From a virus (Duplodnaviria; Heunggongvirae; Uroviricota; Caudoviricetes), in the IMG/VR virus record IMGVR_UViG_2695420403_000001: a stretch of DNA of 7,073 bases; one strand, given 5' to 3'. Positions within the stretch are counted from its first letter, which is position 1; the number at the start of each line of letters is the position of its first letter. A program made the position numbers and the translations under genes. Below the pieces are notes generated by a model that saw only the letters and a list, made by a program, of their open reading frames with translations, did not search any database and had not been told where the DNA came from. This document shows, piece after piece, positions 655 through 7,073 of this stretch.

Positions 655-1730
655 ACGATAACGTCACGCTACGGGTAAATGGCCGGGAGTGGAATGGCTG
701 GACATCGGTGCGCATCGGTGCCGGTATTGAACGGCTGGCACGGGATTTCAGTGTGGAGATCACCCGCCAGTGGCCGGGAGATGAGTGTATCACCACGCTT
801 CAGCCGCGTATTAAAAACGGTTCAAAAGTGGAAGTTCTGATTGGTGATGAGCTGGTGATCACCGGCTGGGTGGAGGCGACGCCCGTTCGTTACGATGCCC
901 GTTCGGTCAGCACCGGTATTGCCGGACGCAGTCTGACCGCTGACCTGATTGACTGTGCAGCCGAATCGACACAGTTTAACGGACGATCGCTGGTACAGAT
1001 TGCGCAGGCGCTTGCTGCGCCTTTCGGCATTGAGGTGGTGAACAACAGTGCGCCGTCGGGTGTTATTCCTGATGTCCAGCCTGATCACGGCGAAACGGTG
1101 ATTGAGGTGATCAACAAAATACTCGGTCAGCAGCAGGCACTGGCTTACGACGACCCGCACGGCAGGCTGGTGATTGGCGGTATTGGCTCAACGCGGGCAC
1201 ATACCGCGCTGGTACTTGGGGAAAATATCCTTTCCTGTGATACGGAGAAGAGTATCCGGGAGCGGTTTTCTGTTTACCAGGTGGCGGGGCAGCGTGCCGG
1301 AAACGACGATGATTTCGGTGAGGCCACCACCACCGCGCTGCGGGCCCGCACAGAGGACGCATTTATTGCCCGTTACCGTCCGATGTATATCAGGCAGACA
1401 GGGCAGGCTACGGGGGCAGGCTGTATTGCCCGTGCGGACTTTGAAGCCCGACAACGGGCGGCGCGGACGGATGAAACCACCTATGTGGTTCAGGGCTGGC
1501 GACAGGGTAACGGTACGCTGTGGCAGCCCAACCAGCGGGTGATTGTCTTCGATCCGGTCTGTGGTTTCGACAATACCGAACTGCTTGTCTCGGAAGTCAC
1601 GTTTACTCAGGACCAGAACGGCACCCTGACGGAAATCCGTGTCGGCCCACCTGATGCTTATCTGCCTGAACCCGAAGCCCCCGGCGCGCGGAAAAAGAAA
1701 AAAGCCAGAGTACAGGAGGACCCGTTCTGA
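651..1730 (+). CDS. Baseplate hub protein, Mu gp44 (gene P)-like; 359 aa
   Basis: Complete ORF, ATG 651 to TGA 1728-1730. Present in three full copies plus one fragment whose differences are almost all third-codon-position changes in this frame. Size and position upstream of a gpV-type spike gene fit the Mu P / P2 gpD hub family. Weak SD-like GAAGG about 10 nt upstream. Function by recognition and synteny, not verified. Confidence 0.7.
   Translation: MNDNVTLRVNGREWNGWTSVRIGAGIERLARDFSVEITRQWPGDECITTLQPRIKNGSKVEVLIGDELVITGWVEATPVRYDARSVSTGIAGRSLTADLIDCAAESTQFNGRSLVQIAQALAAPFGIEVVNNSAPSGVIPDVQPDHGETVIEVINKILGQQQALAYDDPHGRLVIGGIGSTRAHTALVLGENILSCDTEKSIRERFSVYQVAGQRAGNDDDFGEATTTALRARTEDAFIARYRPMYIRQTGQATGAGCIARADFEARQRAARTDETTYVVQGWRQGNGTLWQPNQRVIVFDPVCGFDNTELLVSEVTFTQDQNGTLTEIRVGPPDAYLPEPEAPGARKKKKARVQEDPF
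1714..1719 (+). promoter_or_regulatory. Shine-Dalgarno (AGGAGG) for the spike gene, embedded in the 3' end of the hub gene
   Basis: AGGAGG lies 10 nt upstream of ATG 1730. The same element recurs at 4333-4338, 5768-5773 and 6421-6426 in the other copies. Confidence 0.6.
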
Positions 1731-2278
1731 TGAGGACGATTGAAGCCATGCAGCGACAACTTCTCGGCCTTATTGGGCGGGCAGTGGTGAAAAGCATCAG
1801 TGCCGCCACGAAATGTCAGACCGTGGATGTGTCCCTGATTGCCGGTGAACCCAAAGCCGGGGTTGAACATCTTGAACCCTACGGTTTTACCGCAAGGGCA
1901 AACAGCGGTGCGGAAGCGGTGGTGTTGTTTCCGGATGGCGACCGTTCTCATGCGGTGGTTGTTACGGTGTCGGACCGGCGCTACCGCCTGAAAGGGCTGC
2001 AGACGGGTGAGGTGGCTGTCTATGACGATCAGGGGCAGTCTGTGACGCTGACCCGGGAGGGGATCGTGGTGGACGGTGCAGGTAAAACGATCACGTTTCG
2101 CAATGCGCCCAGAGCACGTTTTGAAATGGACCTAGAAGTGACCGGACAGGTGAAAGACCTGTGCGACTCCGGCGGCACCACCATGTCAGCGATGCGGCTT
2201 GCCTATAACGGCCATCGTCACAGAGAGAACGGTCAGGGCAGTAACACCGACAAACCGGATAAAGCGATGGAGGCATGA
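1730..2278 (+). CDS. Baseplate assembly protein V / central spike, Mu gp45- or P2 gpV-like; 182 aa
   Basis: Complete ORF, ATG 1730 overlapping the upstream stop (TGATG), stop TGA 2276-2278. N-terminal region typical of gpV-type OB-fold proteins and a C-terminal His-x-His (HRH, 2213-2221) as in metal-binding phage spike tips. Strong SD upstream. Confidence 0.75.
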   Translation: MRTIEAMQRQLLGLIGRAVVKSISAATKCQTVDVSLIAGEPKAGVEHLEPYGFTARANSGAEAVVLFPDGDRSHAVVVTVSDRRYRLKGLQTGEVAVYDDQGQSVTLTREGIVVDGAGKTITFRNAPRARFEMDLEVTGQVKDLCDSGGTTMSAMRLAYNGHRHRENGQGSNTDKPDKAMEA

Positions 2279-2618
2279 TGGAACTGTGGCTGACGGTGAA
2301 CGGTAAACGCACCTGCGCCAGCGCACCGCTGGATCCGCTGACCCGCGCCGTGGTGATTTCCCTGTTCACCTGGCGGCGGGCGGAGCCTGATGACAATGCC
2401 GACGTCCCGATGGGATGGTGGGGGGATACCTGGCCTGCGGTACAGAATGACCGTTACGGCTCCCGACTGTGGCTGCTTCAGCGCAGCAAACTGACCAATC
2501 AGCTGGTGCAGACGGTAAGGGGGTATATCCGCGAATGCCTGCAATGGATGATTGATGACGGCGTGGTGTCCCGTATTGATCTGGATATCCGCCGCACCGG
2601 GATTAATGAACTGGGTAA
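2278..2618 (+). CDS. Phage GP46-family baseplate protein (Mu gp46-like), 5' part only; truncated by the N run
   Basis: Starts at ATG 2278 (GGAGG 2269-2273 gives about 4 nt spacing; an alternative in-frame ATG at 2275 is too close to the SD). Translation MELWLTVNG...GWWGDTW...GSRLWLL is characteristic of GP46-family proteins as I recall them. ORF is interrupted by Ns at 2619. Confidence 0.7.
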
Positions 2619-2629
2619 NNNNNNNNNNN
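2619..2629. other. Assembly gap (11 N) joining unit A to unit B
   Basis: Run of n characters. Sequence on either side is not contiguous: upstream is the GP46-like gene, downstream restarts in the tail gene seen at the window start. Confidence 0.95.
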
Positions 2630-3273
2630 GTAACGCCAGCGACCTGGTCACCATGATCAAAACGCTTTCCGGTGTCAGCCTCGGCAGCGATCTGCAACCG
2701 CGCGGTGTCTGGAAAACGGACAGTAAAACCACCGCCACAGCGACGCAGCAGCGTAACGTGGTTGCCAGCACCCTTCGTACGACTGCAATCAGCGAAGCGG
2801 CGTATGCCGTTACCCGATTGCCTGCGCCAACAACTTCCGCGGTGATGCAGAATGCCGCAGTGGGGCAGTCAACAACACCCGCGCAGAGCACCGGCTGGCC
2901 TTCCGTCACGCATCCGGCACTGAACAATGCACCGGCGGTGAAAAACACGGTTGACCTGCCAACGTGGGAAGAGCTGACCGACATTCGCGACACACTGAAT
3001 ACGGCAATTGATAAGGAGTTGTCCCGTACAACCAGTGATGTGCTGTTTCTGGCGCTGCGCCGGGTGAAAGCAGATCTGAATGCGGATATCAACACGCGCC
3101 TTGAACAGTCTGCGCGGATCATTCAGCGTACGCCGGATGAGGTTTTACCCGCGCTGGTGCTGGCGGCGACCTGGTTTGATAACGCGGCGCATGACGCGGA
3201 CATTATCCGGCGCAATGCCATTACACATCCCGGCTTTGTGCCGGTGATCCCTCTGAAGGTGCCAGTGCAATGA
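2630..3273 (+). CDS. Second copy of the 3' portion of the upstream tail-module gene (same as 1..654), 5'-truncated at the gap
   Basis: By my base-by-base comparison 2630-3269 appears identical to 11-650. Stop TGA at 3271-3273. The ORF-track entry 2275..3273 is a chimera reading through the Ns. Confidence 0.5.
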
Positions 3274-4349
3274 ACGATAACGTCACGCTACGGGTAAATG
3301 GCCGGGAGTGGAATGGCTGGACATCGGTGCGCATCGGTGCCGGTATTGAACGGCTGGCACGGGATTTCAGTGTGGAGATCACCCGCCAGTGGCCGGGAGA
3401 TGAGGGTATCACCACGCTTCAGCCGCGCATTAAAAATGGTTCAAAAGTGGAAGTGCTGATTGGTGATGAGCTGGTGATCACCGGCTGGGTGGAGGCGACC
3501 CCCGTTCGTTACGATGCCCGTTCGGTCAGCACCGGTATTGCCGGACGTAGTCTGACTGCTGACCTGATTGACTGTGCAGCCGAACCGACACAGTTTAACG
3601 GACGATCGCTGGTACAGATTGCGCAGGCGCTTGCTGCGCCTTTCGGCATTGAGGTGGTGAACAACGGTGCGCCGTCGGGTGTTATTCCGGATGTCCAGCC
3701 TGATCACGGTGAAACGGTGATTGAGGTAATCAACAAAATACTCGGTCAGCAGCAGGCACTGGCTTACGACGACCCGCATGGCAGGCTGGTGATTGGCGGT
3801 ATTGGCTCAACGCGGGCACATACCGCGCTGGTACTTGGGGAAAACATCCTTTCCTGTGATACGGAGAAGAGTATCCGGGAGCGGTTTTCTGTTTACCAGG
3901 TGGCGGGGCAGCGTGCCGGAAACGACGATGATTTCGGTGAGGCCACCACCACCGCGCTGCGGGCCCGCACAGAGGACGCATTTATTGCCCGTTACCGTCC
4001 GATGTATATCAGGCAGACAGGGCAGGCTACGGGGGCAGGCTGTATTGCCCGTGCGGACTTTGAAGCCCGACAACGGGCGGCGCGGACGGATGAAACCACC
4101 TATGTGGTTCAGGGCTGGCGACAGGGTAACGGTACGCTGTGGCAGCCCAACCAGCGGGTGATTGTCTTCGATCCGGTCTGTGGTTTCGACAATACCGAAC
4201 TGCTTGTCTCGGAAGTCACGTTTACTCAGGACCAGAACGGCACCCTGACGGAAATCCGTGTCGGCCCACCTGATGCTTATCTGCCTGAACCCGAAGCCCC
4301 CGGCGCGCGGAAAAAGAAAAAAGCCAGAGTACAGGAGGACCCGTTCTGA
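3270..4349 (+). CDS. Baseplate hub protein, Mu gp44-like, copy 2; 359 aa
   Basis: Complete ORF colinear with 651..1730. Differs from copy 1 at about 13 positions, all within roughly the first 560 bp of the gene, of which 3 change the amino acid (C46G, S->P, S->G). Confidence 0.7.
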   Translation: MNDNVTLRVNGREWNGWTSVRIGAGIERLARDFSVEITRQWPGDEGITTLQPRIKNGSKVEVLIGDELVITGWVEATPVRYDARSVSTGIAGRSLTADLIDCAAEPTQFNGRSLVQIAQALAAPFGIEVVNNGAPSGVIPDVQPDHGETVIEVINKILGQQQALAYDDPHGRLVIGGIGSTRAHTALVLGENILSCDTEKSIRERFSVYQVAGQRAGNDDDFGEATTTALRARTEDAFIARYRPMYIRQTGQATGAGCIARADFEARQRAARTDETTYVVQGWRQGNGTLWQPNQRVIVFDPVCGFDNTELLVSEVTFTQDQNGTLTEIRVGPPDAYLPEPEAPGARKKKKARVQEDPF

Positions 4350-4659
4350 TGAGGACGATTGAAGCCATGCAGCGACAACTTCTCGGCCTTATTGGGCGGG
4401 CAGTGGTGAAAAGCATCAGTGCCGCCACGAAATGTCAGACCGTGGATGTGTCCCTGATTGCCGGTGAACCCAAAGCCGGGGTTGAACATCTTGAACCCTA
4501 CGGTTTTACCGCAAGGGCAAACAGCGGTGCGGAAGCGGTGGTGTTGTTTCCGGATGGCGACCGTTCTCATGCGGTGGTTGTTACGGTGTCGGACCGGCGC
4601 TACCGCCTGAAAGGGCTGCAGACGGGTGAGGTGGCTGTCTATGACGATCAGGGGCAGTC
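4349..4659 (+). CDS. gpV-type spike gene, copy 2, 3'-truncated at N 4660
   Basis: Appears identical to 1730-2040 of copy 1 and stops abruptly at a single N. Confidence 0.7.
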
Positions 4660-4660
4660 N
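4660..4660. other. Single-N junction between unit B and unit C
   Basis: Flanking sequence jumps from the middle of the spike gene to the last 15 codons of the upstream tail gene; this is not an ordinary ambiguous base call. Confidence 0.9.
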
Positions 4661-5815
4661 CATCCCGGCTTTGTGCCGGTGATCCCTCTGAAGGTGCCAG
4701 TGCAATGAACGATAACGTCACGCTACGGGTAAATGGCCGGGAGTGGAATGGCTGGACATCGGTGCGCATCGGTGCCGGTATTGAACGGCTGGCGCGGGAT
4801 TTCAGTGTGGAGATCACCCGCCAGTGGCCGGGAGATGAGGGTATCACCACGCTTCAGCCGCGCATTAAAAATGGTTCAAAAGTGGAAGTGCTGATTGGTG
4901 ATGAGCTGGTGATCACCGGCTGGGTGGAGGCGACCCCCGTTCGTTACGATGCCCGTTCGGTCAGCACCGGTATTGCCGGACGTAGTCTGACTGCTGACCT
5001 GATTGACTGTGCAGCCGAACCGACACAGTTTAACGGACGATCGCTGGTACAGATTGCGCAGGCGCTTGCTGCGCCTTTCGGCATTGAGGTGGTGAACAGC
5101 GATGCGCCGTCGGGTGTTATTCCGGATGTCCAGCCTGATCACGGTGAAACGGTGATTGAGGTGATCAACAAAATACTCGGTCAGCAGCAGGCGCTGGCTT
5201 ATGACGACCCGCACGGCAGGCTGGTGATTGGTGGTATTGGCTCAACGCGGGCACATACCGCGCTGGTACTTGGGGAAAACATCCTTTCCTGTGATACGGA
5301 GAAGAGTATCCGGGAGCGGTTTTCAGTTTACCAGGTGGCGGGGCAGCGTGCCGGAAATGACGATGATTTCGGTGAGGCCACCACCACCGCGCTGCGGGCC
5401 CGCACAGAAGACGCATTTATTGCCCGTTACCGTCCGATGTATATCAGGCAGACAGGGCAGGCTACGGGGGCAGGCTGTATTGCCCGTGCGGACTTTGAAG
5501 CCCGGCAACGGGCGGCGCGGACGGATGAAACCACCTATGTGGTGCAGGGCTGGCGACAGGGTAACGGTACGCTGTGGCAACCCAACCAGCGGGTGATTGT
5601 CTTTGATCCGGTCTGTGGTTTTGACAATACCGAACTGCTTGTTTCGGAAGTCACGTTTACTCAGGACCAGAACGGCACCCTGACGGAAATCCGTGTCGGC
5701 CCGCCTGATGCTTATCTGCCTGAACCTGAAGACCCCGGCGCGCGGAAAAAGAAAAAAGCCAGAGTACAGGAGGACCCGTTCTGATGAGGACGATTGAAGC
5801 CATGCAGCGACAACT
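4661..5815 (+). repeat. Module copy C, colinear with A positions 607-1761
   Basis: Offset 4054. Contains the last 15 codons plus stop of the upstream gene (4661-4708), a full hub gene, and the first 10 codons of the spike gene (5784-5815). Confidence 0.85.
4705..5784 (+). CDS. Baseplate hub protein, Mu gp44-like, copy 3; 359 aa
   Basis: Complete ORF. About 30 nucleotide differences from copy 1 by my manual count, with only about 5 amino-acid changes (C46G, S->P, NNSA->NSDA, A->D near the C-terminus). Confidence 0.7.
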   Translation: MNDNVTLRVNGREWNGWTSVRIGAGIERLARDFSVEITRQWPGDEGITTLQPRIKNGSKVEVLIGDELVITGWVEATPVRYDARSVSTGIAGRSLTADLIDCAAEPTQFNGRSLVQIAQALAAPFGIEVVNSDAPSGVIPDVQPDHGETVIEVINKILGQQQALAYDDPHGRLVIGGIGSTRAHTALVLGENILSCDTEKSIRERFSVYQVAGQRAGNDDDFGEATTTALRARTEDAFIARYRPMYIRQTGQATGAGCIARADFEARQRAARTDETTYVVQGWRQGNGTLWQPNQRVIVFDPVCGFDNTELLVSEVTFTQDQNGTLTEIRVGPPDAYLPEPEDPGARKKKKARVQEDPF

Positions 5816-5816
5816 N
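5816..5816. other. Single-N junction between unit C and unit D
   Basis: Sequence jumps from codon 11 of the spike gene to an internal codon of the hub gene (equivalent to position 1110 of copy 1). Confidence 0.9.
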
Positions 5817-6437
5817 ATCAACAAAATACTCGGTCAGCAGCAGGCACTGGCTTACGACGACCCGCATGGCAGGCTGGTGATTGGCGGTATTGGCTCAACG
5901 CGGGCACATACCGCGCTGGTACTTGGGGAAAACATCCTTTCCTGTGATACGGAGAAGAGTATCCGGGATCGGTTTTCAGTTTACCAGGTGGCGGGGCAGC
6001 GTGCCGGAAACGACGATGATTTCGGTGAGGCCACCACCACCGCGCTGCGGGCCCGCACAGAGGACGCATTTATTGCCCGTTACCGTCCGATGTATATCAG
6101 GCAGACAGGGCAGGCTACGGGGGCAGGCTGTATTGCCCGTGCGGACTTTGAAGCCCGGCAACGGGCGGCGCGGACGGATGAAACCACCTATGTGGTGCAG
6201 GGCTGGCGACAGGGTAACGGTACGCTGTGGCAACCCAACCAGCGGGTGATTGTCTTTGATCCGGTCTGTGGTTTTGACAATACCGAACTGCTTGTTTCGG
6301 AAGTCACGTTTACTCAGGACCAGAACGGCACCCTGACGGAAATCCGTGTCGGCCCGCCTGATGCTTATCTGCCTGAACCTGAAGACCCCGGCGCGCGGAA
6401 AAAGAAAAAAGCCAGAGTACAGGAGGACCCGTTCTGA
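5817..6437 (+). CDS. Baseplate hub gene, copy 4, 3' fragment (last 206 codons)
   Basis: In frame with the hub ORF and ends at TGA 6435-6437. The ORF-track entry 5784..6437 is a chimera of the spike start plus this fragment. Carries one unique E->D change. Confidence 0.65.
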   Translation: MNKILGQQQALAYDDPHGRLVIGGIGSTRAHTALVLGENILSCDTEKSIRDRFSVYQVAGQRAGNDDDFGEATTTALRARTEDAFIARYRPMYIRQTGQATGAGCIARADFEARQRAARTDETTYVVQGWRQGNGTLWQPNQRVIVFDPVCGFDNTELLVSEVTFTQDQNGTLTEIRVGPPDAYLPEPEDPGARKKKKARVQEDPF

Positions 6438-6985
6438 TGAGGACGATTGAAGCCATGCAGCGACAACTCCTCGGCCTGATTGGGCGGGCCGTGGTGAAAA
6501 GCATCAGTGCCGCCACGAAATGTCAGACCGTGGATGTGTTCCTGATTGCCGGTGAACCCAAAGCCGGGGTTGAACATCTTGAACCCTACGGTTTTACCGC
6601 AAGGGCAAACAGCGGTGCGGAAGCGGTGGTGTTGTTTCCGGATGGCGACCGTTCTCATGCGGTGGTTGTTACGGTGTCGGACCGGCGCTACCGCCTGAAA
6701 GGGCTGCAGACGGGTGAGGTGGCGGTCTATGACGATCAGGGGCAGTCCGTGACGCTGACCCGGGAGGGGATCGTGGTGGACGGTGCAGGTAAAACGATCA
6801 CGTTTCGCAATTCACCTAAAGCACGTTTTGAAATGGACCTAGAAGTGACAGGACAGGTGAAAGACCTGTGCGACTCCAGCGGCACCACCATGTCAGCGAT
6901 GCGGCTTGCCTATAACGGGCATCGTCACAGAGAGAACGGTCAGGGCAGTAACACCGACAAACCTGATAAAGCGATGGAGGCATGA
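6437..6985 (+). CDS. gpV-type spike protein, copy 4; 182 aa
   Basis: Complete ORF colinear with 1730..2278. About 12 nucleotide differences from copy 1, including S->F, A->S, R->K and G->S replacements. Confidence 0.75.
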   Translation: MRTIEAMQRQLLGLIGRAVVKSISAATKCQTVDVFLIAGEPKAGVEHLEPYGFTARANSGAEAVVLFPDGDRSHAVVVTVSDRRYRLKGLQTGEVAVYDDQGQSVTLTREGIVVDGAGKTITFRNSPKARFEMDLEVTGQVKDLCDSSGTTMSAMRLAYNGHRHRENGQGSNTDKPDKAMEA

Positions 6986-7073
6986 TGGAACTGTGGCTGA
7001 CGGTGAACGGTAAACGCACCTGCGCCAGCGCACCGCTGGATCCGCTGACCCGCGCCGTGGTGATTTCCCTGTT
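6985..7073 (+). CDS. GP46-family baseplate gene, copy 4, 5' fragment running off the window
   Basis: ATG 6985 (alternative 6982) with the same GGAGG upstream; translation begins MELWLTVNGKRTCASAPLDPLTRAVVISL as in copy 1. Confidence 0.65.
   Translation, partial: MELWLTVNGKRTCASAPLDPLTRAVVISL

Follow-up and report, generated by a model that had tools for sequence, protein, structure and literature searches.

A mosaic patch in the baseplate hub gene of SfV-like prophages: circulating alleles in a scaffold of near-identical variants

In phage Mu and in the Shewanella prophage MuSo2, the baseplate hub gene (gp44, or gene P, in Mu) is preceded by a gene for a DNA circularization protein and followed by gp45, gp46, Baseplate_J, and gp48. 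These neighbors are shared by the locus described here, whose hub protein is homologous to Mu gp44 and to the MuSo2 protein over the full length and has the same three Pfam domains. Unlike in Mu, a transposable phage, the module is carried here by a lambdoid-type serotype-converting prophage; a functional difference is not indicated. The tail modules of SfV, SfII, SfI, and SfIV have 97.5%–97.9% nucleotide identity with our locus across 2618 bp, with the same gene order, the same gene lengths, and zero indels, and they differ from it just by scattered, mostly synonymous substitutions. Temperate phages and resident prophages recombine, and the temperate-phage mosaicism described by De Paepe et al. 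(2014; PMC3945230) involves the same exchange of allele blocks between close temperate genomes that we consider below. In contrast to that work, we deal here with fine-scale allelic shuffling in genes that are ∼97%–99% identical, not with whole-module replacement, and the recombinant junctions in our record are candidates that may not be biological.

We analyzed a window of 7,073 bp, which is the complete record CYDW01000050.1 of draft assembly GCA_001283865.2 and thus a small scaffold in a draft genome. The locus is a Mu-type baseplate module (gp44/P hub, gp45, and gp46) of SfV/SfII-like prophages, with all genes on the plus strand. The window opens with the C-terminal part of a DNA circularization (Mu gp43-like) gene (1–654, open from base 1), annotated from E. 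coli genomes and Sf phages; its full-length neighbors carry PF07157. The first copy of the hub gene (Mu gp44/P homolog) follows at 651–1730 and encodes 359 amino acids. Its GpP-like N-terminal (PF21683, 82.5 bits), Gp44-like second (PF22255, 93.6 bits), and GpP fourth (PF21929, 66.8 bits) domains all score above the Pfam gathering cutoff, which is 27 for each. The protein matches the PDB structures 1WRU (Mu gp44; residues 1–348, E = 5.4e-51) and 3CDD (the 43-kDa tail protein of prophage MuSo2; E = 1.9e-53). Next come the gene for baseplate assembly protein V (Mu gp45 homolog; 1730–2278, PF06890) and a gene of the gp46 family (2275–2618, PF07409), which is truncated at the end of the first contig. 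Taking the window and its complete neighbors together, we found the full Mu-type order of gp43-like, gp44, gp45, gp46, gp47/Baseplate_J, and gp48; the complete neighbors carry PF07157, PF06890, PF07409, PF04865, and PF10076. Consecutive baseplate genes have stop/start overlaps (ATGA or TGATG-type) at 651–654, 1727–1732, and 2275–2280. Such overlaps are typical of translational coupling in phage tail modules.

The record consists of 7 kb of tail module, and its near-identity to the Sf phages over that module suggests an SfV-like prophage. The module was found in 1,109 of 5,426 complete E. coli genomes (about 20%), with one to four copies per carrying genome (median one), and is among the commonest prophage tail modules in E. 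coli and Shigella.

Runs of N at 2619–2629, 4660, and 5816 divide the window into four plus-strand pieces, A–D, which align to one another gap-free, with zero indels. Positions common to the pieces are given below as columns in the register of A. Piece A (1–2618) holds the 3′ part of the DNA circularization gene, the hub gene, gp45, and the 5′ part of gp46. Piece B (2630–4659) equals columns 11–2040, with an offset of +2619, and contains a second copy of the hub gene (3270–4349), which encodes the commonest protein variant in public data. Piece C (4661–5815; columns 607–1761) has a full hub gene at 4705–5784, and piece D (5817–7073; columns 1110–2366) has the 3′ part of the hub gene, gp45, and the start of gp46. 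Because N runs separate the copies, the pieces are separate contigs and not contiguous tandem copies. All three joins interrupt genes mid-ORF, truncating or fusing them. The ORFs that cross the joins fuse unrelated gene fragments: gp46 to the DNA circularization protein (2275–3273), gp45 to the tail of the DNA circularization protein (4349–4708), and the start of gp45 to the 3′ half of the hub gene (5784–6437). Two such fusions (2278–3273, 331 aa; and 4349–4708, 119 aa) are among the gene calls in the collection index. We found no tandem copies of baseplate genes in more than 100 related loci, which have one gene order throughout. Given this single order and the joins in mid-ORF, the tandem order of the four pieces is a scaffolding artifact; a genuine tandem duplication was rejected, with Ns at every join and genes cut.

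The piece ends coincide with known variation. We assembled a panel of 101 independent copies of the module from IMG/VR, GTDB genomes, and NCBI or ENA assemblies, which gave 79 distinct full-length haplotypes in a gap-free alignment. Seven of the eight ends directly adjoin a site with a minor-allele count of at least two in this panel (columns 0, 606, 1109, 1762, 2041, 2367, and 2619), and such sites make up 9.5% of columns. Piece A starts one base past polymorphic column 0 and stops one base before column 2619, which is polymorphic in the panel; B ends one base short of polymorphic column 2041, and D one base short of polymorphic column 2367. Both single Ns fall on variant columns in either adjoining register: 4660, between B and C, corresponds to column 2041 in B and column 606 in C, and 5816, between C and D, to column 1762 in C and column 1109 in D. 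The eighth end, the start of B, is displaced by exactly the 11-N run at the A–B join, which occupies columns 0–10 in the register of B.

Contig ends at variant sites are the pattern left by greedy extension that halts where several continuations have equal support. GapFiller is described as removing 10 nt from each edge of a gap and as not closing gaps in repeats whose alternatives are equally well supported (PMC3446322); a paper on a widely used pipeline cautions that SSPACE and GapFiller work greedily and can produce false joins (PMC5320598). Our record resembles drafts of this type in being a small scaffold of repeat-derived contigs only, with gaps of 1 N and 11 N, contig ends at alternative-base sites, and flanking sequence written more than once. 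The 11-N run would fit one N plus 10 bases removed by the default edge trimming of GapFiller, and the N pattern points to a Velvet/SSPACE/GapFiller-type pipeline; this is a likeness of pattern, from which we infer the software.

Comparison of A with B shows differences at 14 columns, all of them within the hub gene: 786, 809, 818, 836, 881, 929, 938, 966, 1047, 1070, 1091, 1109, 1160, and 1226. The divergent patch spans 441 bp (786–1226 in A, hub codons 46–192; 3405–3845 in B). On either side the two pieces are identical, over columns 11–785 (775 bp) and 1227–2040 (814 bp). Eleven of the 14 differences are synonymous, the exceptions being C46G, S106P, and S133G; 10 are transitions and four are transversions, of mixed types. 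An earlier note on this DNA had counted 13 differences within 786–1213, 10 of them synonymous. Our gap-free comparison reproduced those counts exactly, with the same three non-synonymous changes, and the identity that the note described holds upstream up to column 785; downstream, its starting point of 1214 overlooked the synonymous difference at 1226, and identity resumes at 1227.

The clustering of these differences is real and highly non-random. For 14 sites placed at random along 2030 bp, the probability of a span of at most 441 bp is 2.7e-8, and when we limited a permutation to sites polymorphic in the panel, none of 200,000 replicates reached the observed clustering. The earlier note was also right about which copies share alleles. 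B mostly matches C in the patch (12 of the 14 sites) and shares single sites with other copies, namely with A against C at 1045, 1048, 1139, 1148, and 1178 and with D at 1160. In the 3′ half of the hub gene, C and D share nine synonymous changes that set them apart from A and B (1271, 1451, 1490, 1526, 1550, 1568, 1589, 1649, and 1673), along with one non-synonymous change at 1678 (A343D). An even spread with no incongruence between segments is not what the data show: the differences are clustered, and sites 1160 and 1271 have all four gametes among the four pieces.

Hub codons 132–133 (columns 1045–1048; 3664–3667 in B and 5099–5102 in C) are the sole place with three different amino-acid states in A, B, and C (NS, NG, and SD, respectively). 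Both codons are polymorphic in the panel, and they may lie where the second gp44 domain has a surface loop that tolerates change.

We found that the patch is composite, consisting of two tracts of differing affinity. In the first (786–966), A is exactly the sequence of panel haplotypes L001/L023 over columns 787–1046, and B is exactly that of C and of haplotype L020. In the second (1047–1226), A equals L003/L004/L009 exactly, and B equals L002 exactly and is identical to D over 1110–1226. Over its full length, A is a clean two-parent mosaic, of the L001/L023 type at 87–966 and of the L004 type at 1047–2134 (permutation P < 5e-6). B requires three sources and, relative to the other pieces, can be composed from A (11–785), C (786–1044), an L002-type block (1045–1109), D (1110–1261), and again A (1227–2040). 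Its sole allele unseen in the other pieces is 1109A, which falls exactly on the N of D. A test within the window identified B as a significant mosaic of A and C (P = 0.002). At least three alleles coexist within 2 bp at columns 1047–1048 (AG, GG, and GA). The switch points fall in invariant gaps of 44–78 bp (741–808, 967–1044, and 1227–1270).

The variation itself is ordinary. The alleles in the patch are genuine, circulating ones: 13 of the 14 at which A and B differ are standing alleles, and of the 47 sites that vary among A–D, 44 are standing polymorphisms in the first, 83-sequence version of the panel, which we used for this check. Sequencing error was rejected for these 44 sites, as they are polymorphic in independent sequences. 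The alleles absent from the first panel are 786T (A), 1262T (D), and 572A. The last of these lies in the DNA circularization gene and is common to A and B (3191 in B); it reflects either a true SNP of the strain, carried by two or more copies, or double assembly of one stretch of DNA.

At the level of the population, evidence for recombination was abundant. The PHI test on the panel was significant (P < 0.001), and the Hudson–Kaplan minimum number of recombination events (Rmin) was 68 for the full 2.6 kb, 30 for the hub gene, and 15 for the 441-bp patch itself. Mean r2 was 0.065 below 100 bp and ∼0.035 beyond (panel columns 1–2618). Linkage disequilibrium that is nearly gone past ∼100 bp, together with an Rmin of 68 among 79 haplotypes, implies that exchange tracts are very short and exchange very frequent. 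For the patch, comparison of A with B gave a dN/dS ratio of 0.09; the pooled value for the panel was 0.025. Taken together, these results indicate that short-tract homologous recombination under purifying selection is real and dominant in the module. The earlier note, which had read the patch as recombination among co-circulating related phages under purifying selection, is therefore borne out for the population, both by the recombination tests and by the dN/dS ratio. For the four sequences themselves its reading is not supported in that form, as A–D are contigs of one draft scaffold and not four phased phage genomes, and the junction combinations of A and B were found in none of the independent genomes searched.

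Among the panel sequences, a 5.8-kb contig of a MAG labeled Bacillota bacterium (JAEWTL010000032.1) has the module at 97.6% identity, which is probably a case of mis-binning or contamination. The draft genome of Edwardsiella hoshinae NBRC 105699 has it at 96.4%, reflecting either cross-genus spread or contamination. The finished genome of Shigella flexneri SFBU0723 (CP182557.1) has two copies, at 24203–30279 and 4679936–4686012, which lie ∼43 kb apart across the record origin and are identical except for two single-base indels; they represent either a recent duplication or two sibling prophages. Being identical but for these indels, the two copies are uninformative as a phased comparator for patchy divergence.

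We then looked for the haplotypes of A and B in independent genomes. None of the four pieces had a 100% match over its whole length in the 5,426 complete E. coli genomes or the phage collection; the best whole-piece matches were 98.9% (A and B), 99.7% (C), and 99.0% (D). Intact A and B patches were absent from 1,232 copies of the module in the complete E. coli genomes, in which the best patch matches were 99.3% and 99.1%, respectively. The hub protein of A was not found elsewhere among 153 billion indexed gene positions; those of B and C are common, with that of C occurring in many independent genomes. We also searched for strings spanning the switch points (A, 960–1095; B, 735–825, 930–1095, and 1155–1275). 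All were absent from the panel and from 568 relatives in IMG/VR, and the A string was absent from JGI metagenomes as well. A non-junction string of similar length (135 nt), used as a positive control, was found in eight contigs. Overall, the A and B junctions occurred in none of about 1,800 independent copies. When 136-nt windows were slid along A and B, those absent from the panel lay only over the junctions or over the alleles at 572, 786, and 2134, which are rare or absent in the panel.

How unusual this is can be judged against genuine haplotypes. In any single junction window, 13%–29% of these are likewise unique, so the uniqueness of a junction is moderate evidence only; 15% of genuine patches are at least four mismatches from their nearest panel relative. 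Uniqueness in the three B windows together is seen in just two of the 79 genuine haplotypes. A hypothetical haplotype joining the left part of A to columns 1047–1109 of B and then to D would lie ∼15 mismatches from L002, which is only modestly nearer than A and B are to their own closest relatives and is not decisive.

We consider it more likely than not that the contrast between A and B arose in the assembly of three or more near-identical prophage copies, rather than being a phased record of recombination. The two assembled versions carry different, genuine, mostly synonymous alleles of the hub gene of an SfV/SfII-like prophage. These come from a prophage population in which short-tract homologous recombination intensively shuffles the tail module while purifying selection is strong. 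The sample held at least three variants of the module, in co-resident prophages or as a mixed sample. A short-read assembler would have ended each contig where the following base was ambiguous, and a scaffolder would then have joined four such contigs with Ns. The identical flanks around the 441-bp patch would most likely stem from assembly, with the same underlying sequence written twice; this is also the simplest account of A and B sharing all flanking bases, including the private 572A. B, and perhaps A too, would be a chimera whose path jumps from one co-sampled variant to another in the gaps at 741–808, 967–1044, and 1227–1270, with junctions that are probably the work of the assembler rather than of the cell. 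Given that the A and B junction combinations are in no independent genome and that the contigs are cut at ambiguous bases, the specific mosaic may be an assembly chimera. A specific recombination event is not readable from the patch, because assembly itself may have shuffled the variants. Some observations speak against a chimera. Recombination is frequent in properly assembled genomes, as the Rmin of 15 in the patch attests; gene conversion between co-resident prophages would likewise leave B as a patchwork of stretches identical to those in A, C, and D; and if the k-mers or reads were longer than the 44–78-bp gaps, as they may have been, phase would have been preserved during assembly.

These points lead to the most serious alternative, a sharper form of the earlier note's reading, to which we assign a clearly lower, though appreciable, probability. 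Here A–D would be the true haplotypes of four SfV-like prophages co-resident in one genome, with A and B as sibling copies, and B would recently have received one or two gene-conversion tracts (∼180–260 bp each) from co-resident C-like and D-like copies via RecA or a phage recombinase. The tracts of B are indeed identical to C (786–1044) and to D (1110–1261), both present in the same sample, and the private 572A shared by A and B fits a very recent common ancestry. Short-tract exchange is abundant in the population, recombination between temperate phages and resident prophages is known (PMC3945230), and genomes with up to four copies do occur. Against this, were A–D all real, columns 1226–1271 would call for four distinct copies, which is the maximum seen in the 5,426 complete genomes; two adjacent tracts from two different donors are needed inside 441 bp; and every junction is unseen in the other genomes searched. 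Moreover, these sequences derive from a repeat region in which the scaffolding is demonstrably wrong and the contigs stop at ambiguous bases, the setting in which phase can be trusted least.

A mixed or contaminated sample, with several strains that have one prophage each and pieces that are true or chimeric haplotypes of co-circulating phages, strikes us as improbable. It would accommodate the three or more alleles within 2 bp at columns 1047–1048, and most genomes are single-copy (median one), but the record belongs to a submitted genome assembly and not to a metagenome, multi-copy genomes exist, and there is no sign of strain mixture outside the prophage within the 7-kb window. Least plausible by far is that the hub protein is under diversifying selection there, for instance for altered receptor or partner specificity, or that the patch is a local hotspot of mutation. 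The three non-synonymous differences between A and B do fall in the patch, and codons 132–133 have three states in A, B, and C. However, 11 of the 14 differences are synonymous third-position changes with a dN/dS of only 0.09, all but one of the alleles already circulate in the population, as blocks found unchanged in other genomes, and the 10 transitions and four transversions reveal no base-specific mutation bias. We therefore rejected a mutational hotspot, diversifying selection, and targeted hypervariation on the grounds of the synonymous bias, the mixed spectrum, and the 13 of 14 standing alleles.

The record holds a methodological lesson. Small draft scaffolds joined by Ns can pass the contigs of a multi-copy prophage off as tandem copies, and a mosaic among such contigs mimics the signature of recombination, whether its junctions are biological or not. 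Without read-level phasing, such mosaics should not be scored as recombination events, and genes fused across the joins should not be annotated. The weight of the finding for biology is small: close temperate phages are well known to shuffle alleles on a fine scale under purifying selection, and neither explanation would make the phenomenon a new one. Intragenomic conversion, if true, would let one observe directly how long the tracts of prophage–prophage conversion are and how often such conversion occurs.
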